Source of the DNA: an uncultured Bacilli bacterium
GTDB lineage: Bacteria > Bacillota_I > Bacilli_A > RF39 > UBA660
Direction: 5' to 3'
Length of the DNA: 64,000 bases
NCBI GenBank assembly: GCA_947632545.1
Contig: CANRPP010000001.1
Span: forward strand, 10,145-74,144
Each line of letters opens with the position of its first letter. Position 1 is the stretch's first letter. Of the stretch, positions 7,077 to 56,267 are shown in pieces. The position numbers were made by a program, and so were the translations under genes. The notes beneath the pieces were generated by a model. That model was given only the letters and a program-made list of their open reading frames with translations. It made no database searches and was not told the origin of the DNA.

Positions 7077-10000
7077 ATGCAAAGAAAAATGATGCATTTA
7101 ATATTATTATTTTTGGCAGTTTTTCTAATCCCATTTAGTGTTAATGCTGCTCAAAATGTTACATTAAAAATTGATAAAGATAATTTAGAAATAGGTGATG
7201 AAGTAACAATAAGTGCTAATATATCAAGTAATATAGAAGCTTATGCACTACAAGCTACTTTAAAATATGATGAAAATGTTTTTGAACAAATAGATGATGA
7301 AAGTTTTTCTATTAATAGCACAATGGATATTTCATACAATGAAAATAGCAATAAATTTGGAATAATAAATCAAACAGGTAAAATTACTAATGAATTATTT
7401 AAAGTTCGTCTAAAAGTAAAAGAAAATGCTAATGTAGGAAATACTAATATAGCGCTAACTAATATGTCATATTCAGATGGTGAGAGTATAAAGGATTTAG
7501 ACAAAGTATCAACTAAAGTATTAGTAACAAAAGATGCTGTTGAAGGAGAAGCTATTTCCATTAATAAAGAAAATAAAATTACAGAAGATCAAGAAAATAC
7601 TATTAAAGTTTTTTCAACTAAACCAATTATAATTCTTATTTCAGTTATAATAGTTTTATTACTTATAGGAATTGTATATATGAGTATTAATTATCGTGAT
7701 AAAAAGAAACCTTTATATTGTTTAATTGCAATAGGTATAATCTTACTTATTACTGATATAAGTTTATTTATTACCAATACCACAAAAAAAGATGTTAATT
7801 CTGATGGTAAAAAAGATTATGATGATTCAAAAGAAATTATTGATTATCTTATTAGTATTGATACAAAAAATAGTAAAGATAGTGATAAAGACTTAAATAC
7901 TAAAAAAGCAACAAATAAAATTACACGTAAATATGATATCAATAATGATGGTAGATTTAACATAAGAGATGCTGCAGGTAGTGTAGAAGATATAAATAAT
8001 AAAACTAACGTTAAATTAAAAGAAGTAAAAGCAGAAAATGAATATTATGTAGAAAAAGGTAATATAGATCTTAAATTTACAGCTGAAATTAATCCAAAAG
8101 AAGTTAAAATTACTAAAGTAAAAGTAGATAATAAGTACTATGATGTAAAATCTAATAGTGGGGTTTATATAGTTTTAGTTGATGATTATACTAAAGCCGG
8201 TCCACATGATTTTGTAATTAATGAAGTTAAATTATCAAATGGAGAAGTAAGAAATACTAATCTAAAAATTAAAAAAGAAATCTTAAAAGATAAACCTAAA
8301 GTTAAAAATTTAAGTTATGACATTAAAGAAGGAAATTTAAAATTCTCCATAGATGATAATGATACTGCATTACAAAATGCTGAGTTAACTATTTTTGAAG
8401 GTATAGTTAGTGAAAATGATTTAAGAAAAAGTGAAGAAAATACTGGTATTATTGATGAAGAAGGTAACGAAATAAATTCAGATGATTTTGATGATTATAA
8501 AATTGTTTTAGAAAAAGAATTAAAACATACAGATAAATCTTTTTCAATAAAACCTAATTTGTCACTTGGTGGAGTTTATACAATAGTTATTACTGGTGAA
8601 TATGATTTAGATGTTAATAAGGATAATGATAAAAACGATTATCAAGAACAATTCCTTAATGATGGGTTAGATAATATTACAGTAGGAAAAATTGTAATTG
8701 CACCATTAGAACAAGAAGAAATATTCTTGGAACAAAAAAATACATACGACTATCTTTTTGATGTTACATTTGAACCACAAAGTATTTCTCAAGAAATAAA
8801 ACAAGTTAAAATTGGAGAAATCTATAAAGATATTACTTATGAAGATGGTCATTGTAAATTAAGTCTTGATGATACCTCTACAGCTGGACTTAAAACTGAA
8901 GACATTACTGCGATAGTATTAAATGATGGCACAGAAGTTTTAAGTAAACATGAGGTAAAATATGATGTATTAAAAGCAATTCCTACTATTAGTAATTTTA
9001 TATACAATAAAAAGAAAAATAAAATATCATTTACTTTAAGTGATAAAGATAATGCTTTTAGAGATGTCAACATAAAAATAACTAATAAAGATAATGGTAC
9101 TGAAGTATTTAAAGAAAATTTATTTTTAGATAAAAAAGAATTTGAATTTCAAGTAAAACTTGATGAAGGAAACAAATATGATGTTAATATTGATGGATCT
9201 TATGATCGTGATAGTGATATTAATAATAATAAAAATAACAGCAAAACAAAATTTAACCATGGACTTACTGTATATAATGTCGCATTAAGTAATGTTGAAA
9301 AAGAGAAGTATCATGTAGAAAAAAATAGTGAATTTGAATTAAAATTTAATGCTAATATTACTCCAGTAAATGAAAATGCTACTATAAAAGAAGTAACTAT
9401 AGAAGATCAAGTTTATAATCCTACTAAAGAATCAGATGGTACTTATAGTATCAAACTTAATTCTCCAAATGAGTCAGGAGAGAAAACTTATAAATTAGAA
9501 AATATAATTATTGATGATGAAGAAATTGATGAAACACTAAATGTAAATGTAGATGTATTAAAAGATAAACCAAAAGTAGAAAACCTGCTAATTGATGAAT
9601 CAAAATCAATACCAGAAATATACTTTGATTTAGTAGATGAAGATAATGCACTAGATAATGAATCTAAACCAGGTAAGTTAACTGTTGCAAAAACAGGTGG
9701 TACTTCCAAAGATTTTGACATAAAAAAAGGTACAAATAAAATAAAACTAGAAGACTTCACTGATGAATTTAAAGATGAGGGAGGAATTTTTGATTTAGAT
9801 ATTAAGGCTGATTATAATTTAGATCCTGATAAAAAAGTTAATAAATATCATGAAACAAATAAAGAATTAATAGATAAAAAACAATTTAAAATCTATACAG
9901 CAACTTTAACACCAGGTTCATATAGTGAATATGTGCCTAAAGATAAAGAAATAGAATTTCAAATAAATTCAGCTATTCAACCATATGAGCCTGAAGTTAC

Positions 10001-48138: not shown

Positions 48139-51100
48139 ATGAAAAAATTTTTAGTCAGTTTAATTTTATTATTTACATTTACTACAGTAAATGCTAATGA
48201 GCTTGAATTAAATCTAAATAAAAAAGAAGCTAGTTTAGGAGAGGAGGTAACAATATCACTTGATTCATATAGTGATGATATTAAATTAAATTATGATAAA
48301 AATGTTTTTTCTGCTATTGATATAGATAATTTTAAAAATAATAAACATATAACATCGAAAGGGAATACATTTTATCTTGATAAAGAAAGCAATTTAAAAA
48401 TAAAATTAAAAGTAAAAAAAGATGCTCCTAGTGGTAAAACAACAATTAAAGTTAGTTATGGAAATAAAAATATATCAAAAGATATTAAAATAGATGGTAA
48501 AGTAATTAAAGAAAAATCAAATTTATGGATTTTATATGGAATCTTAACTATTGCTTTAATAGGAGCTATTATTTATTATTATAATCAAAATAAAAATAAA
48601 ATTGGTAAACAACAAACTATATATATAATAGTTGCTAGTATAGTAGCTATAATACTGTTAATTATGACATTTACTTCACTAAATAATAAAGATAATAAAG
48701 TAGATAAAGATAATTTGATTTATAAAATTAAAGTTAAAGAGAATGAAGAAAAAATAAAAGATAATGAATTAGATGATAATACTGATACTACTATATCAAA
48801 AGAGAAATATTCTAAAAAATCAACTAGTAATAAAAAAGAGAACCAAATAATAGAAGATATTGTATATAGTGTTAAATTAAATAGTTACTCTACAAGTACT
48901 AAAATTACAAAAAAAGGTGACGATATTGTTATAACATTTGATATAGATATTAAACCGTATGCAGATATTAAAGCCGTAGAAATAAATGGTAAGATCTATT
49001 CAGTTCAAAAAGTAGGGGATAAATACCAAACTACAATTAAAGCTTCTAATGTATATGGTGATGGTAATTATACAATAACAAAGGTTGTTTTAAGTAATGG
49101 TAAAACAGTAAATGTAGAAAATAAACATATAACAGTTTATGTTTTAAAGGAAGAACCAAAAATAGAAAATATTGAAGTTAATAGTAAAGAAGTTATACCT
49201 GTTTTAAACTTTGATGTTAAAGATCCCGACAACTCATTTGTAAGTGGTAGTGTAGTTATGACAAAAACAACTAATCCTATATTTAGAACTATTTCATTAT
49301 TTAAAAAATTAACTAATAATATAAGTAAAGAAAATGAGTTATTAAATAGTGAAAATGTTAAAGTAGGTCATAATTCATTTGAAATAAAAGATTTAAAAGA
49401 GGGAATGAGTTATGATTTAAAAATTACTTTAAATTATGATTTAGATGAAGATAAAACAGATAGTACATATTCTGATACAAAAGAAGAAGAAAAAATTAAA
49501 ACATTTGAAAGAGAATATAATTTTGAACTTAAAAATGCAGAGATTACAAGTCCAGTTACTAAAGATCAAGAGTTAAAATTATCATTTGAAAATGGTGCAT
49601 TCTCTTATACTGATATAGAAAAAATTACAATTAATGGTAAAGAATATGAAGTAACAAAAGATGAAGAAACAGGTGTTTATAAAGTTAATGCTGCTATAGA
49701 TAAATGTAGTGAAAAAGGTAAATGCAGTCTTCATATTAGTAGTGTAAAAGTTACTACTGAAAGTAAAGAATCAAAAGAAATTCCATGCGATTATGATATA
49801 GATTATATCTATCTTAAAGATCAGCCAACTATTAATAGTTTTAATGCAACTTATGATCAAAAAAATATAACTGCAACATTTAATCTTACTGATAATGATA
49901 GTGCTATTAGCGAAGGAAGATTAATTATAAATGGACCTGATGGAGAAAAAGAAATTGCATTAACAAAAGAGGATTTAAAAGAAAATACTGTTACTAAAAA
50001 TTTAGATTTAGAATTATCTGGTGAATATACTGTAACATTAGAAATTACTTATACAGGTACTAATGATGATGGTACAAAAAGTATGGAGAGTACATCAAAA
50101 ATAGAAAAAAATATTACTGCTTCTATTACAAATGTAAGTGCTAATCCTAAAATTGTTACAAGAGGTGAAACTGTAGACTTAATATATACAATAAAGGATA
50201 ATACAGAAGAAGATATAACAAATATTACTGTAAATGGAACTAGTTATACTGCAGATAAACAATCAGATGGTACTTACAAGGTAACAGTACCAGTACCTCA
50301 AGAAGGAGAAGATTTAACTAGAGAATTTAAGGCTACTAAAATAAATTATAATGATAAAACAGTAGAATTAGCTGAATCTAAAGATATAACTTTAAATGTA
50401 ATGAAAAATAAACCAGAAATAAATGAATTTATATTAACATCTGCAGGGGGACAAATTAGTGGAACGTTCAAATTTACTGATGAAGAAAATGCCATAGTAG
50501 GTGCTAAATATACAATTGGTAGTACAACTAGAACTCTTACTAAAGAAGAACTAGAAAATAAAAAATTCACTGACTCTGATGTAAAATCAGCTGGAAATTA
50601 TGATGTTACTTTAACTCTTATCTACGATTTAGGTGATGGAAAGAAATTAGAGGATGTAACAAGTAAACAACAAGTAAAAGTTGAGGTAGATGCAACTATT
50701 ACAGAGTCATCTATTAATCCTAAATTTGTTAAAAAAGGTGAAGAAGTAACAATAACCTATACAATAAAAGATAATACACCAAGCACATTATCTAAAATAG
50801 TTATCAATACTGAAGAAGTTACAGATGTAAATCCAATAGGTGAAGACAAATATGAAGTAAAGATAAAAATTGCTGAAAATGAATTTGCTGGAGAAAAAGA
50901 ATTTAAAGCAACAAAACTTATTTATGAAGATGAAGAAGAATTTGAATTAGAAAATACTGTTAAAGCAACTGTTTTAAAAGAAGAACCAACATTTGAAGAA
51001 TTTACTGCTACATATGATGAAGAAGAAGATAACCTTAAAGGAAATATTAATATTACAGATTCTGAAAGTACAATAACTGGTGGTAAACTTACAATTACTG

Positions 51101-53877
51101 GCCCAGGATTTAGTGAACCAAAAGAAATATCAATTTCCAAAGAAGACTTATTAACTGGATCATTTACAAAAAGTTTAGATCTTATAAAAATGGGTAAATA
51201 TAATATTTCTTTAGAAATAACATATAATTTAGGAGAAAAAGATATTACTACAGATCCTATGGAAACTACTATTAGTAAAGCATTGGAAATTACTAGTGTA
51301 GATGTAGAGGCCCCACAATCAGTAATTAAAAATGGAAAAATAGAATTAATATATACAATTAAAGATAATACAGATGAAAAAGTTACTAAAATTAAGATTA
51401 ATAATGAAGAAAAAGAAGTAACATATGATAAAGAAACTGATACTTATAAAGTAGAGTATATTGCTTCTACTACAGTTGGAAAAACTACATATACAACAAC
51501 AGAGGTTATTTATGAAACAAGTGGTACTAAGAAAGTTACAGTTACTCCTAAAGATGTGTATGTTTTAAAAGATAAACCTACTATTGATGGAGATCCTACA
51601 TATACAGATAAAACGGCAACAGTTAATATTACTGATATTGATACTGCAAAGACTTCAGCTAAAATTAAATTTACAAAAGTTGGTACAGAAGAAGAAACTA
51701 AATCAATTGATATTAATGAAGATGGTACTGCCGATATTAGTGAATTATCAAATGGTACATATAATGTTACTATTGAAGTAGGTTATGATTTAGATGGTAC
51801 TGAATCAGATTTACCTGATACTACTGGTAATGTTACTAAAGAATATAGTAATGTTGAAATTATAACTACTTATAATCCACAAGTTAATAATTTGAAATTA
51901 AATAATATTACAGATAAAAAAGTTAAACTAGAATTTGAAAGTAGAAATGATGCTAATGTTAAAGTAACTAGCACCAAGGTAAAAGATGCAGAAGGGAATG
52001 AATATCTAGGAACACTTACTGAATTAAATGGTAAGTATATAGTAGAAATTGATAACGATGGAAAAAGAAAAGAATTAACTATATCAGAACTTACTTTTGA
52101 AACAGGTATTTCAAAGGAGATAACAATAGAAGATAAAGTTTTAATTAATAAAACTGAACCTACTGCACAAGTAACTGTTTCAGAAGATGAATCAAATAAA
52201 GTAACAGCAGATATTACTATTGCAGATGATGATAGTACAATAACTGAAAATACTAAATATGCTGTTCTTAGACAATCTGATGATCCTAAAACAGAAATAG
52301 AAAGAAAGAAAATTACAGATAGTAATACCATTACTTTTGATCAAATTTTAGAAGGTGGAAATAGATATCAGGTTGATGTAATTGCTGATTACAATAGAGT
52401 TGATGGTACTGAACATAAAGGAGAAGTTATTGGATCTTCAGATCATATAACAATAAATGCTAAAGTAGAATTAAAAACTTTTGAATTGCCTAAGTCAGAT
52501 ACTTATCCAACAAATAAATATTTTACATTAATATTTAATTTTGAATCTAATGTTAAATTAGATGGAGATATAAGAAATGTAGTTGTTCATACTGAAGAAT
52601 ATGATAATTCTCTTGAAAATAAGGATCCATATACACAGGTAGGTATAGAAACTAAAGATACTCAAATTGATAAAGTTAAGTGTGATCCATCTATTAAATC
52701 AGAAAATGGTACATATAAAACTTTATGTAGAACAGATTATATAGTACCTGATAAAAGTGGAGTTATTAAACTAAAACCAGTATCATTTACTTATCTTGAT
52801 AAAGATAAAACAACAATAGATACTGAATTAGCAAACGCACAAGAAAAATTAGTAGATATTATTAAATGGGCACCAAAAATCACGTATACAACAATAAATG
52901 ATTGGGCAAATAAAACAGTTAAAATAGAGATTAATGTTGACGATAAAAATAATATGTTACAAAAATTTGATACAGGATCATATTTTAACGCAACATTAGC
53001 GACCAAAACATCAACAAATAAAATTGAAAGTCTAGAAGGTAAACAAATAATAGTATTTGATAACCTAAATGATTTAAAACTAAATACTCCGTATAGAGTT
53101 ATGATTAAAGCTCGTTATGATCAATATCACGGAAATATTGTTATTGATAAATCAGAGAATGAACGTATAGAAGAAATTTCTGTTGCTAGTTATATTCACT
53201 TTATTACAGAATCCAATGACTCTTCACTAAACGATTTGGAATTAGTAACATCTGATGGAAAAGATATTGGAACTGAAAAAAGTTTTAGAATTGGGGATGA
53301 CGTTAGATTAGCGTTTACAATTAATGATGAAGGTAATATCTATCCTGGATTTATTCCTGATAAAATAAAAATAGAAGCTACTAATCAAGTGGGTGATTAC
53401 AAAAAAGAATATAGTGTTACTAAAGAAGGAAATAGATATATTACTACCGAAGCTTTGACAGACTTAAGTGTAGGTGAACATATAATAAAAATAGTTGAAG
53501 TATCAAATAGTTCAAGTAATAAAACAATTAAAGTCACTCATGATAATGTAATTATTGTTAATATTCTTGAAACAGAAGCTAGTAATATTAAATTAAATAG
53601 TAATACATTAACTATAAATAATGAAACAAGTCTTGTTCCTAATAATACAGTAGCAGTTACAACATCTGAAGAACAATCTGAAAAAGATGAAGAAGATAAT
53701 GATTCTAATGATTTAGATAATACTGAAAAAGAATCTACTGAAGATTTAATTACTTCTGAAGAAACACAAAGTAAAGATAAAGAAATACCTACTGAGGAAA
53801 AAATAGAAGAGAATGAAAATATTGATGAAACTATACTAGAAGAAATTAATGATAATATTGACTTCTCAATTGAATAA
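48139..53877 (+). CDS. Giant (1912 aa) surface protein, paralogue of the 7077 gene: cohesin-like domain, TM hairpin, 7 repeat modules, acidic tail; no dockerin or protease
   Basis: Single ORF with signal peptide ...TTVNA/NE. It has the same N-terminal architecture and the same VLK(D/E)(K/E)P module boundaries as the 3086-aa protein. Confidence 0.75.
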   Translation: MKKFLVSLILLFTFTTVNANELELNLNKKEASLGEEVTISLDSYSDDIKLNYDKNVFSAIDIDNFKNNKHITSKGNTFYLDKESNLKIKLKVKKDAPSGKTTIKVSYGNKNISKDIKIDGKVIKEKSNLWILYGILTIALIGAIIYYYNQNKNKIGKQQTIYIIVASIVAIILLIMTFTSLNNKDNKVDKDNLIYKIKVKENEEKIKDNELDDNTDTTISKEKYSKKSTSNKKENQIIEDIVYSVKLNSYSTSTKITKKGDDIVITFDIDIKPYADIKAVEINGKIYSVQKVGDKYQTTIKASNVYGDGNYTITKVVLSNGKTVNVENKHITVYVLKEEPKIENIEVNSKEVIPVLNFDVKDPDNSFVSGSVVMTKTTNPIFRTISLFKKLTNNISKENELLNSENVKVGHNSFEIKDLKEGMSYDLKITLNYDLDEDKTDSTYSDTKEEEKIKTFEREYNFELKNAEITSPVTKDQELKLSFENGAFSYTDIEKITINGKEYEVTKDEETGVYKVNAAIDKCSEKGKCSLHISSVKVTTESKESKEIPCDYDIDYIYLKDQPTINSFNATYDQKNITATFNLTDNDSAISEGRLIINGPDGEKEIALTKEDLKENTVTKNLDLELSGEYTVTLEITYTGTNDDGTKSMESTSKIEKNITASITNVSANPKIVTRGETVDLIYTIKDNTEEDITNITVNGTSYTADKQSDGTYKVTVPVPQEGEDLTREFKATKINYNDKTVELAESKDITLNVMKNKPEINEFILTSAGGQISGTFKFTDEENAIVGAKYTIGSTTRTLTKEELENKKFTDSDVKSAGNYDVTLTLIYDLGDGKKLEDVTSKQQVKVEVDATITESSINPKFVKKGEEVTITYTIKDNTPSTLSKIVINTEEVTDVNPIGEDKYEVKIKIAENEFAGEKEFKATKLIYEDEEEFELENTVKATVLKEEPTFEEFTATYDEEEDNLKGNINITDSESTITGGKLTITGPGFSEPKEISISKEDLLTGSFTKSLDLIKMGKYNISLEITYNLGEKDITTDPMETTISKALEITSVDVEAPQSVIKNGKIELIYTIKDNTDEKVTKIKINNEEKEVTYDKETDTYKVEYIASTTVGKTTYTTTEVIYETSGTKKVTVTPKDVYVLKDKPTIDGDPTYTDKTATVNITDIDTAKTSAKIKFTKVGTEEETKSIDINEDGTADISELSNGTYNVTIEVGYDLDGTESDLPDTTGNVTKEYSNVEIITTYNPQVNNLKLNNITDKKVKLEFESRNDANVKVTSTKVKDAEGNEYLGTLTELNGKYIVEIDNDGKRKELTISELTFETGISKEITIEDKVLINKTEPTAQVTVSEDESNKVTADITIADDDSTITENTKYAVLRQSDDPKTEIERKKITDSNTITFDQILEGGNRYQVDVIADYNRVDGTEHKGEVIGSSDHITINAKVELKTFELPKSDTYPTNKYFTLIFNFESNVKLDGDIRNVVVHTEEYDNSLENKDPYTQVGIETKDTQIDKVKCDPSIKSENGTYKTLCRTDYIVPDKSGVIKLKPVSFTYLDKDKTTIDTELANAQEKLVDIIKWAPKITYTTINDWANKTVKIEINVDDKNNMLQKFDTGSYFNATLATKTSTNKIESLEGKQIIVFDNLNDLKLNTPYRVMIKARYDQYHGNIVIDKSENERIEEISVASYIHFITESNDSSLNDLELVTSDGKDIGTEKSFRIGDDVRLAFTINDEGNIYPGFIPDKIKIEATNQVGDYKKEYSVTKEGNRYITTEALTDLSVGEHIIKIVEVSNSSSNKTIKVTHDNVIIVNILETEASNIKLNSNTLTINNETSLVPNNTVAVTTSEEQSEKDEEDNDSNDLDNTEKESTEDLITSEETQSKDKEIPTEEKIEENENIDETILEEINDNIDFSIE
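48196..48510 (+). other. Cohesin-like domain (short)
   Basis: LELNLNKKEASLGEEVTISLDSYSDDIKLNYDKNVFSAIDIDNF...LKIKLKVKKDAPSGKTTIKVS parallels the N-terminal domain of the 3086-aa protein. Confidence 0.5.
48523..48685 (+). other. Two-helix TM hairpin with a basic loop
   Basis: LWILYGILTIALIGAIIYYY, loop NQNKNKIGKQQ, then TIYIIVASIVAIILLIMTFTSL. Confidence 0.7.
48900..53000 (+). repeat. Seven in-frame modules of about 570-720 nt
   Basis: Boundary motifs occur near 49140 (YVLKEEPKIEN), 49810 (YLKDQPTINS), 50398 (VMKNKPEINE), 50971 (VLKEEPTFEE), 51561 (VLKDKPTIDG), 52140 (INKTEPTAQ) and 52860 (IKWAPKITY). Confidence 0.7.
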
Positions 53878-53887
53878 TAAATTTTCA

Positions 53888-53920
53888 AATGACTCTATAA
53901 AATTATTATAGAGTCATTTT
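53888..53920 (+). terminator. Rho-independent terminator
   Basis: AAATGACTCTATAA-aatta-TTATAGAGTCATTT, a 13-bp stem followed by a T-run. Confidence 0.85.
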
Positions 53921-54084
53921 TATGAATAGTATAAAATGTTTATATGAAAGTAATAATATATGATAAATTTAATTTTTTATTATAAAAAAATAATTGATTA
54001 TAAAAATTTGTAAACCAAATTTAATAAATTTACAGAAAAATATTAAAATTGTAAAAAAATGTACATAAAGTTTACAAAAAATAG

Positions 54085-54114
54085 TTGAAATTACTATTAT
54101 AAATATGATATAAT
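54085..54114 (+). promoter_or_regulatory. Extended -10 sigma-A promoter upstream of the hairpin-repeat RNA and abi gene
   Basis: TTGAAA (54085-54090), an 18-nt spacer, then TGaTATAAT (54106-54114). The predicted start lies near 54121. Confidence 0.55.
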
Positions 54115-54120
54115 GTAAAC

Positions 54121-54170
54121 AGGTTCAGTGATTAGTGACCTATTGTTGCTAGTCCTACCATTTTTTTTTG
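54121..54170 (+). ncRNA. Candidate small structured RNA: 12-bp bulged hairpin (54127-54156) followed by a U9 tract
   Basis: The hairpin is AGtGATTAGTGAC-CTATT-GTTGCTAGTCCT followed by ACCATTTTTTTTT. It is copy 1 of two repeats related by covariation. Confidence 0.5.
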
Positions 54171-54214
54171 CATAATTTAAAACAAACTACATATAACTAA
54201 AATGAGCATGCTTA

Positions 54215-54248
54215 GTTCAGTGTCTAGTAAGTTATTCTTGCTAGGCCT
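54215..54248 (+). ncRNA. Second copy of the hairpin repeat in the abi leader
   Basis: 27 of 34 positions are identical to 54123-54156. All six stem differences preserve pairing (A-U to U.G, U.G to C-G, G.U to A-U, C-G to G-C). It ends about 33 nt before the abi ATG. Confidence 0.5.
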
Positions 54249-54281
54249 TTTCTTGTGTGTATAACAAAATGAGGTGTTAAT

Positions 54282-55229
54282 ATGACATTATTAAAAGAAT
54301 ACAAAACTTCAGATGAAATTATTGATATACTTAGCGAGAGAGGAATGATATTTTCAAAACCATTAGTAGCAAAGAAAATATTATGTGAAATAAATTATTT
54401 TTTCTTAAAGGGATATCAAGATCTATTATTAATTCCAGGTAACAATAAGAAATTTAAATCAAATTGTGATTTTGAAGAATTAGTAAATTTATATTTTTTT
54501 GATAAAGAGCTTAAAGCATTACTTCTTGAATATCTATTAGATATAGAACAGAAAATTAAAACAGCTATGTCAATTATTATTTCTTCTAAATATGGTATTA
54601 ATGATAGAATTTACTTAAAAAAAAGAAATTTTGATTTAAATAGTCCATATTTAGATAATGCAATAAGGGCAATAAAAAATCAAAGAAGAGAATATGGAGA
54701 AAAAAATACCGCTGTTAAATATTATAAAAATACTTATGGTTATATACCATTTTATGTATTAACAAAATGTTTAACATTTGGCGCTGTAAAAAAATTATAT
54801 AATGTAATGAAACAAGTAGATCAATCAGAAATTTGTAATAAAATATTATTTAGAAATATAAATAATAAAAGAATTAGTAAAACAAAAATATTTATTGCTC
54901 TTATAGCAGATATAAGAAATATGTGTGCACATGATGAAATTATTTATAACTTTGTTCATGGAAGTATTGATATCGGTGAATTACCTGAACATATAAATTT
55001 TAAATTAAAAAGAACAGAAAATGGTAACCTTATACAAGGAAGAAAGGATTTATTTGCGTTATTATTATGTATGAAATATTTAATGAAAAAAGGAAGCTAT
55101 AATGAATTTATACAAAGATTTGATTCTTTAATAAAAAAAACAGCAAAAAAATCAAAAATATATACAGAAAAAGAACTAGTAGAATATATGAATCTGCCTA
55201 GTGACTATTTAAAGTTAAGACAAATTTAA
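54282..55229 (+). CDS. AbiD/AbiF (Abi_2) family abortive-infection-type HEPN protein
   Basis: 315 aa with a typical Abi_2 N-terminus (...IDILSERGMIF...INYFFLKGY) and the Rx4H HEPN motif in ADIRNMCAHDE. Confidence 0.7.
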   Translation: MTLLKEYKTSDEIIDILSERGMIFSKPLVAKKILCEINYFFLKGYQDLLLIPGNNKKFKSNCDFEELVNLYFFDKELKALLLEYLLDIEQKIKTAMSIIISSKYGINDRIYLKKRNFDLNSPYLDNAIRAIKNQRREYGEKNTAVKYYKNTYGYIPFYVLTKCLTFGAVKKLYNVMKQVDQSEICNKILFRNINNKRISKTKIFIALIADIRNMCAHDEIIYNFVHGSIDIGELPEHINFKLKRTENGNLIQGRKDLFALLLCMKYLMKKGSYNEFIQRFDSLIKKTAKKSKIYTEKELVEYMNLPSDYLKLRQI

Positions 55230-55245
55230 AATTATATGCATATTT

Positions 55246-55270
55246 AAAGACTGATCAAAAATCAGTCTTT
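55246..55270. terminator. Bidirectional terminator between abi and the VanY-like gene
   Basis: Perfect 10-bp stem AAAGACTGAT-caaaa-ATCAGTCTTT, flanked by A and T runs. Confidence 0.8.
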
Positions 55271-56177
55271 ATTTATTATTTTCAATTTTTTGTACATAGT
55301 ATTCTTCAAAAGTTATATTATTATCGTGTATATATTTAGCTATTTTTTTACCAACATATCTATAATGCCAAGATTCATATTGATATCCAGTAATATCTTC
55401 TTTACCTTTAGGAAATCTTAATATAAATCCATATTTATAAGCATTATCTTGCATCCATTCAAAAGAATCACTTTTATCAAAATTAGTATAATCTATTTTA
55501 CCATCATATATATCTACGCATAAACCAGTTTGATGTTCAGAATAACCTGCTCTAGCAGAATATGAATCTGCTGCTTCAACTCCATCCGATTCCTTATATT
55601 TATTATATAAATCAACCTGATAATCATAACTTCTATAACTTGACATAGCAATTATTGGACTATCATCACGTTTAGCTTTTCTAGCCATTGAAACAAATGC
55701 CTCTTTTGCTTCCTTTACAAGTCTCATACCACTTCTAGCATACTCTTCAGGTATAACTTGTAAATTATTAGGAGTATAATTACCACCTAAATATAAATAT
55801 TTATTAACTAATATATAACTTTTATTTAAGTATGGAGTTTTCTTAGTATGTGTATAAAAATCATAATCAAGATTAATATTAACTCTAGTAATAACATCTT
55901 CAATATTTAAATTTTTATTTTTCTTATAGTAATTAACATATCTATTAATATATTTTTTATTGCAGTACTCTATTTTATTACACTGTTTATTAATTTTGTC
56001 TAGATCATTAATTTTTTTTGATTCATTATTTTTATTTACATTATTTAAATTAGTTTTATTATTATAAATAATTATAGAAATTATAGTTATAAGTATAATA
56101 GAAAATATTATAGAAAACTTTTTAATCTTCTTTTTTAGTTTTCTTTTTCGTCTTCTTCCCATTGGTCTTTTATTCAT
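55269..56177 (-). CDS. VanY/M15B-family D-alanyl-D-alanine carboxypeptidase, membrane anchored
   Basis: SYRSYDYQ, SEHQTGLCVDI and ESWHYRYVG are the zinc-binding H/D/H motifs, with an N-terminal basic segment and TM helix. I prefer the start at ATG 56177 (MNKRPMG) over the track start 56246. Confidence 0.8.
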   Translation of the reverse strand: MNKRPMGRRRKRKLKKKIKKFSIIFSIILITIISIIIYNNKTNLNNVNKNNESKKINDLDKINKQCNKIEYCNKKYINRYVNYYKKNKNLNIEDVITRVNINLDYDFYTHTKKTPYLNKSYILVNKYLYLGGNYTPNNLQVIPEEYARSGMRLVKEAKEAFVSMARKAKRDDSPIIAMSSYRSYDYQVDLYNKYKESDGVEAADSYSARAGYSEHQTGLCVDIYDGKIDYTNFDKSDSFEWMQDNAYKYGFILRFPKGKEDITGYQYESWHYRYVGKKIAKYIHDNNITFEEYYVQKIENNK

Positions 56178-56267
56178 ATAACCACATCCTAATACTATAA
56201 TAGCATTAATTTGTCTATTTATGTATATTTTTTTTGTTAAAAACATAAAAAAAATTAGGAGGAGTTT

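Follow-up and report, generated by a model that had tools for sequence, protein, structure and literature searches.

The question raised by this locus is whether two related hairpins lying directly upstream of an abiD/F-type gene are the RNA half of a type III toxin-antitoxin cassette and, if they are, whether this RNA is the one already described for AbiF systems. The locus lies in a window, by which we mean the whole stretch of DNA analysed, of 64,000 nt from an uncultured gut bacterium of the Bacilli (RF39; UBA660), corresponding to positions 10,145-74,144 on the + strand of CANRPP010000001.1 in assembly GCA_947632545.1. Its features are collected in Table 1. Based on the analysis described below, it is probable that the locus is an AbiD/F abortive-infection / type III toxin-antitoxin cassette with a small hairpin RNA of a previously undescribed type.

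Table 1. Features of the cassette, in coordinates of the window.
Feature	Position	Strand	Details or basis
Promoter of leader RNA (predicted)	54085..54114	+	-35 TTGAAA, 18-nt spacer, TG-extended -10 TATAAT
Hairpin module 1, predicted stand-alone RNA of ~49 nt	54121..54169	+	fold, model R1, conservation
A+T-rich spacer	54170..54214	+	-10-like box and P0 remnant (alignment)
Hairpin module 2	54215..54259	+	fold, terminator scan, model R1, conservation
Shine-Dalgarno GAGGTG of abiF, 5 nt ahead of ATG	54271..54276	+	read from sequence
abiD/F-type gene, 315 aa, presumed toxin/effector	54282..55229	+	Abi_2 domain, HEPN motif
Hairpin terminator ending the cassette	55245..55271	.	11-bp stem and T-rich tail (scan)

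Consider first the protein. The open reading frame carries an Abi_2 domain (PF07751) at residues 33-223, with 121.5 bits against a gathering cut-off of 25.6 (6e-35), and PADLOC assigns its product to AbiD (6.1e-51). The HEPN RNase motif R212-N-M-C-A-H217 (Rx4H) is coded at 54915-54932, so that the 315-aa Abi_2 protein with an RNMCAH motif given in the preliminary description is confirmed; R212, N213, H217 and D218 are invariant in 48 homologues. The sequence matches PDB entry 8VZ6, the complex of PbAbiF with its ncRNA (E 3e-13), with the R and H aligned with those of 'RNSCCH' in PbAbiF, and for the AF2 model (pLDDT 94.9) the sole PDB match by Foldseek (E<=0.001) is 8VZ6_A (E 1.3e-10, TM 0.75/0.79). 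Judged by its sequence and modelled fold, the protein is a genuine member of the AbiD/F group; it is presumed to be the toxin/effector, with RNase and antiphage activity predicted.

We then consider the leader. The direct repeat noticed before, 54123-54156 and 54215-54248, is recovered with a 92-nt spacing and with 27/34 positions identical (79%). Both 34-nt copies fold identically into ....((.((((((((((.....)))))))))))), i.e. 2+10 bp with a bulged U, as had been proposed for a common 12-bp hairpin, with -10.0 kcal/mol for copy 1 (z = -3.9, 0/200 shuffles as good) and -13.3 kcal/mol for copy 2 (z = -4.6, 1/200 shuffles as good). The pair table, re-read from the sequence, bears out that all six stem differences between the copies keep pairing: the changes at 9/31 (A-U to U.G) and 17/23 (C-G to G-C) are fully compensated, those at 10/30 and 15/25 exchange a G.U for a Watson-Crick pair, and the seventh difference falls at a loop position.

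In module 1 a closing helix (GGU/ACC, 54122-54124/54157-54159) is added to this fold, bringing it to -13.4 kcal/mol (z -4.5); there follow the unpaired UC (54125-54126), the AG/CU pairs (54127-54128/54155-54156), the bulged U (54129), the 10-bp stem (54130-54139/54145-54154) and the loop CUAUU (54140-54144). After copy 1 the sequence runs ACC-A-T9, and the U9 tail mentioned in the preliminary description occupies 54161-54169. Module 2 begins with GUUCAG (54215-54220) and has its AG/CU pairs at 54219-54220/54247-54248, its bulged U at 54221, its 10-bp stem at 54222-54231/54237-54246 and the loop UUAUU at 54232-54236. Its hairpin (54222-54246) is scored terminator-like by the scan; the U-run is interrupted (UUUUCUUGUGUG), making the terminator weaker than those of the homologues. 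Copy 2 ends 33 nt from the ATG at 54282, the distance estimated earlier.

The RNA gene thus described lies directly 5' of abiF on the same strand, with a predicted promoter of its own and terminator-like hairpins with U-runs in between. The promoter scan agrees with the extended -10 promoter and the start near 54121 that had been suggested: with 11/12 consensus matches and the TG extension present, this is the best site of the region, and the RNA is predicted to start at A54121, 6 nt past the -10 box. Among the homologous loci (given L numbers where they have to be told apart) the alignment retains TTGACA-17/18-TGnTATAAT-N6-AGG, which the scan scores at 12/12 matches in L002 and 11/12 in L008, and the Shine-Dalgarno GAGGTGA, and the arrangement of promoter, RNA, terminator and toxin is by sequence prediction also kept. 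In the spacer between the modules a -10-like box TATAAC (54192-54197) is conserved, with the alignment consensus 'CATATAAnT..TGAG', and GAGCATGCTT (54204-54213) is a degenerate remnant of P0, a small variable hairpin that precedes copy 2 in homologues and whose stems covary among loci (GAAC/GTTC, GAGC/GCTC, GAGTAG/CTACTC, GAAAG/CTTTC, GAATAC/GTATTC). It is noted that the full-promoter scan of the window, L098 and L002 flags no internal promoter for hairpin 2 or abiF, only -10-like boxes being conserved, and an internal start is therefore a conjecture. The terminator ending the cassette is common to abiF and a convergent VanY-like gene (55269-56246, minus strand; PF02557). The sequencing runs containing the locus, mainly rabbit-gut metagenomes, are listed as DNA (the kind being guessed), with no RNA run found among them. 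In public gene calls the RNA half is sometimes engulfed by an over-extended ORF.

The covariation pointed out by the preliminary description within the single locus extends across homologous loci. The same hairpin element is carried at the same position by 16 distinct loci coding homologues of 38-77% protein identity, with stems differing by compensatory changes; it is present as copy 1 in 12 distinct homologous loci and as copy 2 in 11. Common to the element are the start 'AGGUUCAG' 6 nt after the -10 box, the unpaired UC bulge, the closing helix and the U-run; the unpaired UC, the CAG, the bulge and the position of the RNA start with respect to the -10 box have been kept even as the stems changed. 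In an alignment of 13 hairpins 95.4% of the cells pair and 8 pairs have changed on both sides, with a covariation score of 0.474 versus 0.239 for shuffles (0/500 reach 0.474) and <=0.10 for slid controls; part of this count goes back to one ancestral change that separates copy 1 from copy 2 and that many rows share by descent (pairs 13/35 and 21/27). Fitting 28 matches (26 distinct) to the model gave an alignment with 94.1% paired and 11 pairs with double changes. For 27 hairpins the folds of the + strand total -343.7 kcal/mol versus -253.3 for the reverse complements and include 32 G.U pairs; therefore, the structure is that of an RNA read from the + strand.

The hairpins were used to build a covariance model (model R1), which was searched over 405 kb and gave 24 matches with E<1e-3, all on the gene strand and 60-220 nt upstream of Abi_2 genes of at least 50% identity; within the 64-kb window it has two sites only, module 1 (67.1 bits, E 3e-15) and module 2 (65.6 bits, E 9e-15). 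A second model (R2), built solely from the four single-copy hairpins of the clade with 38-45% identity, detects copy 1 in the 50-54% clade without having been trained on it (E 2e-7 to 4e-6), as would be expected if a single RNA family has evolved together with the protein. Since the genomic neighbours vary from locus to locus, the homologues lying in unrelated contexts, the RNA and the gene travel together as a cassette. Among Abi_2 genes at <=36% identity, leader inspection and models R1 and R2 found no such leader, and thus not every member of the family has an RNA partner. What computation establishes is the structure of the hairpin, its conservation and covariation and its exclusive linkage to this Abi_2 clade, besides the family and fold of the protein and the promoter and terminator signals. 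Note also that L008 and the rumen homologue L096 (64% identity) have hairpin 1 only: in L008 it lies between its own promoter and a U9 tail while abiF has a separate full promoter (scan), and L096 has the same layout, the second promoter being recognised by eye. Given this layout, it is plausible that the RNA would act in trans.

As to whether this RNA is the known one, a search with the Rfam abiF motif (RF03085, gathering score 37 bits), proposed in the preliminary description, gave no match at E<=10 in the window at 53800-55400 or in L001-L003, and none at E<=1 in L103, L104, L011 and L013. The positive controls were detected, the PbAbiF locus with 58.5 bits (L121, 894-930) and C. difficile phage phiC2 with 37.6 bits, so that RF03085 detects the RNAs of both characterised systems, PbAbiF and C. 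difficile phage RCd22. Over 90 sources, a regular expression for the RF03085 core matched an abiF leader in phiC2 (L005) only; in the leader, the single Rfam match with E<=10 is a spurious one to IS009, and no Rfam family reaches its gathering threshold anywhere in the window. The RF03085 consensus has a G+C-rich 6-bp stem CCCGCC/GGCGGG, an A bulge, a 3-bp inner stem and a 3'-side CAAAUC internal loop, whereas in the window hairpins a helix GGU/ACC closes the structure, UC is bulged out on the 5' side, and AG/CU pairs and a bulged U lead to an A+U-rich stem of 10 bp with a loop of 5 nt. Therefore, of the earlier statement that the locus is a member or a variant of the AbiF plus ncRNA class, the variant stands, as an Abi_2/8VZ6 relative with conserved hairpins of a different RNA fold, and membership of the RF03085 motif does not. 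Since the RNA fails RF03085, the one curated model for AbiF RNAs and the one RNA motif described to date for this toxin family, binding is not transferable to it by RNA homology.

The candidate RNA-protein pair of the type III kind that had been put forward is supported by the protein family, the covarying hairpins and the layout resembling that of RCd22/AbiFCd, and the hairpin, as read from sequence, is most likely the neutralising RNA partner of the toxin. The pathway that we infer, from transcription and termination through RNA-protein binding and neutralisation to the trigger and the antiphage activity, would be as follows. From the strong extended -10 promoter, the transcript would begin precisely where hairpin 1 has its base (AGGUUCAG...), and hairpin 1 with its U9 tail would end most transcripts, giving an abundant RNA of ~49 nt. 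Hairpin 2, also terminator-like, would be made by read-through or from a weak internal start. The abiF gene would be reached only by transcripts passing both hairpins, and thus, in this proposal, the RNA would be in large excess over the toxin mRNA. By analogy with PbAbiF-AbiFr and RCd22-AbiFCd, each hairpin would bind one monomer of the AbiF dimer, whose HEPN active site would be blocked by the conserved unpaired nucleotides (the UC bulge, the CAG, which is invariant, and the bulged U), leaving the RNase inactive. When a phage halts host transcription or destabilises the RNA, free AbiF would cut RNA and arrest the infected cell. Against this reading it must be said that a plain intrinsic terminator would also appear as a hairpin with a U-run, and that the U9 terminator between the copies would put the yield of hairpin 2 in doubt; the best reading is that each copy may double as its own terminator.

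An unlikely alternative would be a leader acting purely in cis, in which tandem terminators or attenuators hold a toxic gene low, with feedback by AbiF possible and no free antitoxin RNA. RCd22 does cut abiF expression 17-fold in cis (PMC12373285), and the transcription of abiD1, behind a promoter plus terminator, is reported to be very weak (PMC13064643). Consistent with such a leader, U-runs follow both hairpins here and hairpin 2 is flagged as terminator-like, as it is in the scans of L098 and L002. A terminator, however, requires just a stem and a U-run; it needs neither the unpaired UC, the CAG and the bulge nor the exact RNA start, all of which are conserved here. Moreover, with the second promoter of L008 and L096 abiF no longer depends on the hairpin, and therefore a purely cis-acting attenuator would be pointless there. 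The RNA of both characterised AbiF systems works in trans by binding the protein.

It is quite improbable that the RNA is a required cofactor or activator, a sensor or a guide-like part of AbiF, the complex being the active antiphage form. This would fit the lactococcal AbiF, whose antiphage activity was seen only with the upstream sequence (PMC11381338), and Cas13, a proposed AbiF descendant that uses RNA as a guide (PMC12737573). The lactococcal need for the upstream sequence is, however, equally explained by toxicity of the unprotected gene, and in both biochemically studied systems the RNA inhibits the RNase. In addition, the hairpins have no variable spacer-like segment, and their variable stem positions change in compensating pairs. 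That the repeats are incidental (a duplicated terminator, a REP- or MITE-like remnant or a DNA-level site, unrelated to AbiF) is already disfavoured and hardly credible: short repeats and hairpins are frequent in a genome of ~25% G+C, with 32 inverted repeats in 411 nt, but model R1 has matches outside the window only upstream of related Abi_2 genes, the strand asymmetry and the G.U pairs favour RNA, all matches to the hairpin pattern in viral contigs are chance ones that do not fold, and leader blastn against plasmids and phages gave no significant match.

The viral-contig pattern, AGGTTCAGNG-N25-CCTACC, had 13 matches with neither fold nor U-run, which are therefore due to chance; relatives of the protein in viral contigs numbered none by direct search and two, 28% identical, by profile search. 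The blastn matches of the leader in plasmids and phages were A+T-rich chance matches only (E at least 0.1), and no Lactococcus record was among the plasmid matches listed; with the search against all plasmids empty, any lactococcal likeness lies below DNA-level detection. Other candidates were rejected. For a peptide antitoxin or type I toxin, the sole ORF of the leader has 20 aa (54202-54264), lacks a Shine-Dalgarno sequence and is also broken by stop codons in L001 and L002. For a system of the ToxIN/AbiQ type, the copies are 58 nt apart, separated by non-repeat sequence, and the toxin is Abi_2/HEPN. For a type VI CRISPR array, there are two repeats of 79% identity, the inter-repeat sequence is conserved and the effector is a 315-aa single-HEPN protein.

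Returning to the cassette of an AbiD/F toxin with a neutralising hairpin RNA, we give an even chance to a joint reading in which this 'UCAG-bulge' hairpin would be an undescribed class of AbiD/F antitoxin RNA, structurally unrelated to RF03085, AbiF nucleases having exchanged or radically remodelled their RNA partners. In the same joint reading the RNA form would vary within the clade between a single stand-alone sRNA gene and two units, each with a terminator and perhaps its own start, and the upper stem would differ too, being a regular 10-bp helix at one extreme and, at the other, a helix interrupted by an internal loop and capped by GNRA or UNCG. To our knowledge, it was only in 2025 that AbiF plus ncRNA came to be seen as a type III toxin-antitoxin system and was proposed as the Cas13 ancestor. 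The finding extends a known principle and overturns nothing. Both characterised AbiF RNAs belong to one Rfam motif, and the window hairpin, if confirmed, would be a second fold; it would provide a model for annotating the RNA half of such cassettes, at present invisible, and an explanation of why cloning such genes may fail when the leader is left out, and the one- and two-copy forms with co-varying RNA and protein would be material on how a HEPN nuclease reads its RNA partners. Moreover, if the UCAG-bulge reading is true, the loci would form a natural series on how recognition of a fixed RNA comes to tolerate variable sequence, as is postulated to have happened between AbiF and Cas13.

Finally, we compare the locus with known systems. 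The nearest in layout is RCd22/AbiFCd of the C. difficile phi027 prophage (also in phiC2 and phiCD2301; PMC12373285), which shares with the window locus an Abi_2/HEPN toxin, a SigA-type promoter, a small RNA in which a hairpin motif of 33-35 nt occurs in two related versions, terminator signals ahead of the toxin gene and a transcription start ~160-170 nt from the ATG; in both, stem structure counts more than stem sequence. In RCd22 of phi027 there are two motif copies, the transcription start lies 168 nt from the ATG and a terminator precedes abiF (PMC12373285). By contrast, AbiFCd is only 29.5% identical to the window protein, and the RCd22 motifs are RF03085, with a G+C-rich stem and a 3'-side CAAAU internal loop, which the window hairpins do not match. 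In RCd22 a single RNA contains both motifs, 19 nt from each other, and the terminator is separate, whereas the window copies start 92 nt apart, each terminator-like and with the U9 between them, and RCd22/AbiFCd sits in a prophage lysis module while the window cassette has a chromosomal housekeeping context.

PbAbiF-AbiFr of Prevotellaceae (8VZ6) is the sole structural relative of the window protein, with the catalytic R and H aligned. In the summary of Zilberzwige-Tal et al. 2025 given in PMC12737573, the PbAbiF dimer has one ncRNA per monomer. The RNA is a single hairpin with a U-run directly upstream, like those of the single-copy relatives L008, L096, L103 and L104. AbiFr is, however, canonical RF03085, whereas the window RNA has another sequence and layout, with conserved unpaired bases on the 5' side and a long regular A+U-rich stem.

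The lactococcal AbiD1, AbiF and AbiD-like systems depend on a short 'promoter plus terminator' sequence that lies upstream (PMC11381338, PMC13064643). Window hairpin 1 resembles the conserved 'strong promoter plus terminator' of the lactococcal AbiD/AbiD1/AbiF/AbiD-like group, a likeness drawn from the published description; it is to AbiD that PADLOC files the window protein.

With ToxIN/AbiQ the locus has in common a repeated RNA upstream of an endoribonuclease toxin, a terminator setting the ratio of RNA to toxin and abortive infection, which is predicted here. ToxI consists of head-to-tail 36-nt repeats that the toxin processes into pseudoknots. The systems differ in that the toxin there has the ToxN/AbiQ fold, not HEPN, and ToxI is not made of separated terminator hairpins. 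With type VI CRISPR-Cas13, the locus shares an AbiF-related HEPN effector and repeated hairpin units of ~34 nt. Unlike the Cas13 arrays, the window locus has two units only and, between them, conserved sequence with the promoter-like box and P0 in place of a variable spacer; it has no adaptation genes, and its protein, with one HEPN domain, would work as a dimer.

The G+C content of the window is locally ~21-30%, the source organism being very A+T-rich, and its sequence occurs mainly in rabbit-gut metagenome runs. The features of the locus are collected in the table below, among them the extended -10 promoter that the preliminary description had proposed and that the scan recovered.

Features of the abiF locus and its surroundings (positions within the window)
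Feature	Position	Strand	Remark
3086-aa ORF	7077-16337	+	giant ORF
1912-aa repetitive ORF	48139-53877	+	giant ORF; upstream flanking gene
Terminator hairpin of the 1912-aa ORF	53887-53919		plus TTTT
Promoter TTGAAA-18-TATAAT, TG extension	54085-54114		11/12 matches, best in region
Two related 34-nt segments (copies 1 and 2)	54123-54156, 54215-54248		27/34 identical
-10-like boxes TATAAC/TATAAT, often TG-preceded	54192-54197, 54260-54265		conserved in alignment
Shine-Dalgarno GAGGTG			ahead of the 315-aa ORF
315-aa ORF (Abi_2)	54282-55229	+	
Terminator	55245-55271		common to the 315-aa ORF and the VanY-type gene
VanY-type gene	55269-56246	-	convergent with the 315-aa ORF

The two segments upstream of the Abi_2 gene (hairpins 1 and 2) do share a hairpin fold, as had been claimed: each has a stem of two plus ten pairs, interrupted by a bulged U and capped by a 5-nt loop, with fold energies of -10.0 kcal/mol (z = -3.9) for copy 1 and -13.3 kcal/mol (z = -4.6) for copy 2. 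When copy 1 is extended by two bases per side a GGU/ACC closing helix is gained, after which A-U9 comes next, confirming the U9 tail; downstream of copy 2 comes UUUUCUUGUGUG, and the scan marks this copy as terminator-like. The copies differ at seven positions exactly as first described, by two fully compensated pairs, two G.U/Watson-Crick switches and one loop change, and all of the stem changes keep the pairing. Note also that a 20-aa hydrophobic ORF (MSMLSSVSSKLFLLGLFLCV, 54202-54264, +) overlaps hairpin 2; it is probably not a gene, because no Shine-Dalgarno sequence precedes it and stop codons interrupt the corresponding frame in the homologous loci L001 and L002.

The identity of the 315-aa protein also stands, with Abi_2 (PF07751) matched at 121.5 bits, PADLOC assigning it to AbiD (6e-51), and the Rx4H HEPN motif present as R212-N-M-C-A-H217, where R212, N213, H217 and D218 are invariant among 48 homologues. 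Its sole PDB relative by sequence is 8VZ6, 'PbAbiF dimer bound to ncRNA' (E 3e-13, catalytic R and H aligned), and the AlphaFold2 model (pLDDT 94.9) has 8VZ6_A as its only meaningful match (E 1.3e-10, TM 0.75/0.79). One 337-aa homologue (P0047, 59% identical across 65% of the query) gives Pfam hits to both Abi_2 (PF07751) and Fic/DOC (PF02661); this may reflect two fused toxin domains or an error in joining the gene.

Homologues at 38-77% identity to the window protein were gathered from genome, metagenome and assembly collections and their upstream regions were read. In the 63-77% clade (L001, L002, L003, L090, L092, L094) both hairpins occur in unchanged order, with a promoter TTGACA-17/18-TGnTATAAT, the RNA start 'AGGUUCAGUG' exactly 6 nt after it, and then hairpin 1 as a variable 10-bp stem, 'CCUACC' and U7-9. 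There follow an A+T-rich spacer of ~50 nt, the small variable hairpin P0, the stems of which covary (GAAC/GUUC, GAGC/GCUC, GAGUAG/CUACUC), and in the alignment '(A)GUUCAG', the second stem and 'GGCCUUUUU'. The 50-54% clade (L009/L100, L010, L098, L102) has the same flanks around stems of wholly different sequence, namely a 5 bp / bulge / 5 bp helix with a UUCG or UGCG cap. The 38-45% clade (L103, L104, L011, L013) has one hairpin only, in which the 'A-GGUYCAG-N-GGA...' start, the closing helix and the U-run are retained. The upper part of this hairpin is an internal loop and a 4-bp helix with a GNRA tetraloop (L103, L011) or UGCG (L104); L013 departs from the others in this part. Upstream regions and model searches gave no such leader at homologues of <=37% identity. 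At L106 (905-960, 38% identity) a P0-like small hairpin precedes a long hairpin and U7. The GGUUCAG start is lacking, but the loop of the long hairpin (GAACUACGGUUUG) is similar to the L013 hairpin in its inner part, and the RNA may here have diverged still further.

Two loci of 64% identity, L008 (167-294) and L096 (850-990), have hairpin 1 only. The promoter scan of L008 gives two full promoters, one each for the hairpin and abiF, and the layout of L096, judged by eye, matches. Hairpin 1 in these loci thus appears to be a free-standing small RNA gene, since at L008 the abiF promoter (a full TTGACA-17-TATATT) is located past the hairpin-1 terminator. Such a second promoter, which uncouples the hairpin from abiF at some loci, argues against a purely cis-acting double terminator, as do the conservation of unpaired nucleotides and the fixed transcription start, and we consider that explanation unlikely.

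A partner RNA is what the characterised systems have. RCd22 of C. difficile, an RNA of ~100 nt, carries the Rfam abiF motif RF03085 twice; its SigA promoter lies 168 nt before abiFCd, it ends at a terminator with rare read-through, and its effect is lost with stem-breaking mutations and not with compensatory ones (PMC12373285). The PbAbiF dimer, as summarised in PMC12737573, carries one ncRNA per monomer, with unpaired nucleotides of the ncRNA blocking the HEPN site. The idea that the RNA is instead an activating cofactor of AbiF is contrary to both systems, and is still less probable than the double terminator. That the hairpin RNA is the cognate binding partner or antitoxin of AbiF is what we regard as likely.

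For this partner RNA we infer expression, binding, neutralisation, trigger and defence as follows. Transcription would start at A54121, and hairpin 1 with its U9 tail would end most transcripts, giving a ~49-nt RNA, while hairpin 2 would be made by read-through or from weak initiation inside the leader, at the conserved TATAAC box, so that abiF would be reached only by transcripts passing both hairpins. By analogy, each monomer of the AbiF dimer would be bound by its own hairpin, and the RNase would stay silent until the RNA level falls on infection. The -10-like boxes, located ahead of P0 and, among relatives, also ahead of the abiF Shine-Dalgarno sequence, raise the possibility of as many as three separate transcription units; -35 boxes are lacking, and the promoter scan flags none of them. 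In the alignment the stretch from hairpin 2 to the Shine-Dalgarno sequence is ~25-30 nt shorter in the window than in relatives and has no such box before the Shine-Dalgarno sequence, and the U-run of hairpin 2 is interrupted; expression of abiF in the window organism therefore probably relies on read-through, as it does with RCd22.

The structure, its conservation, its linkage to abiF and the accompanying signals are computed results. In an ungapped, not model-fitted MAFFT alignment of 13 hairpins, 95.4% of cells are paired in the proposed structure and 8 pairs change on both sides, with a covariation score of 0.474 versus 0.239 +/- 0.028 in shuffles (0/500 reach 0.474) and <=0.10 with partners shifted 1-3 columns. 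Among the doubly changed pairs, 13/35 and 21/27 stem from one old difference between the copies, and variation within a copy is seen at 14/34, 16/32, 17/31 and 18/30. The covariance model R1, built from the 13 hairpins and searched on both strands of the window and 99 loci (405 kb), gives 24 hits with E<1e-3, all on the gene strand and 60-220 nt upstream of an Abi_2 gene, with two only inside the 64-kb window; such searches exclude incidental repeats, which we give almost no credence. Aligned by fitting to the model, the 28 matches (26 distinct) are 94.1% paired and show double changes at 11 pairs. R2, a model from the four 38-45% hairpins only, independently recovers, in the 50-54% clade, copy 1 at E 2e-7 to 4e-6, with a weak match to copy 1 of the closest clade; therefore the single- and two-copy forms are one RNA family diverging with the protein. 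Folded on the + strand, 27 hairpins total -343.7 kcal/mol and contain 32 G.U pairs, versus -253.3 kcal/mol for their reverse complements, and the structure is thus RNA read from the gene strand. The hairpin RNA is almost certainly a functional element tied to the abiF gene.

Homologous cassettes are found in quite different neighbourhoods, so that RNA and gene behave as a small mobile unit. Two of them follow immediately after another abortive-infection gene, Abi_alpha (L098, 1-526) or AbiH (L103, 1-732), and so sit in defence islands. By contrast, the window cassette does not: its neighbours are housekeeping genes (VanY, PBP5-type carboxypeptidase, FAD oxidoreductase), no prophage-like or defence-island-like features were seen near it, and no tRNA genes were found in the window. 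Other RNA elements beside homologous cassettes, namely an L20-leader-like match (L002 2806-2931, 49.5 bits, cut-off 58.7), a T-box leader (L011 2523-2730, 98.3 bits) and a tRNA gene (L001 4424-4507), are unrelated to the window hairpins. Of the two giant ORFs in the window, the 1912-aa one has a signal-peptide-like N-terminus, an acidic tail and many segments repeated internally. The only Pfam match is a sub-threshold one to E-set (TcfC), and the two ORFs are probably surface or adhesin proteins.

It was proposed in the preliminary description that the locus is a member or a variant of the known abiF RNA class. The AbiF/ncRNA layout stands, but the RNA lies outside the described motif: RF03085 has no match in the window or L001-L003 (E<=10) or in L103, L104, L011 and L013 (E<=1), while the scans do detect it in phiC2 (37.6 bits) and upstream of the gene in L121, the PbAbiF locus (100% identical over 213 residues queried), where it is canonical at 58.5 bits. 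The public gene call for this exact PbAbiF (P0057, L121 801-1850) has 349 aa versus 300 aa in the PDB chain, and its additional N-terminal part runs over the ncRNA (894-930); an over-extended ORF from automatic annotation can therefore mask the RNA partner. The blastn search of the window leader against plasmids and phages found nothing. The 'promoter plus terminator' upstream of lactococcal AbiD/AbiD1/AbiF, compared by description only, fits window hairpin 1 (PMC11381338, PMC13064643). In the RF03085 consensus the 6-bp stem is G+C-rich, an A bulge and an inner stem of 3 bp follow, and an internal loop of six bases (CAAAUC) lies on the 3' side, whereas the conserved unpaired bases of the window-type hairpins are on the 5' side. 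Because of this lack of resemblance and of any RF03085 match, the window system would be AbiF plus ncRNA in layout with an RNA that is not a member of RF03085. The feature is real, and is predicted to be a type III-like toxin-antitoxin cassette of the AbiD/F kind whose RNA has a second, undescribed fold; it overturns nothing and extends a principle established in 2025, and it gives this family, which has been linked to how Cas13 arose, a second RNA class that is concrete and can be tested.
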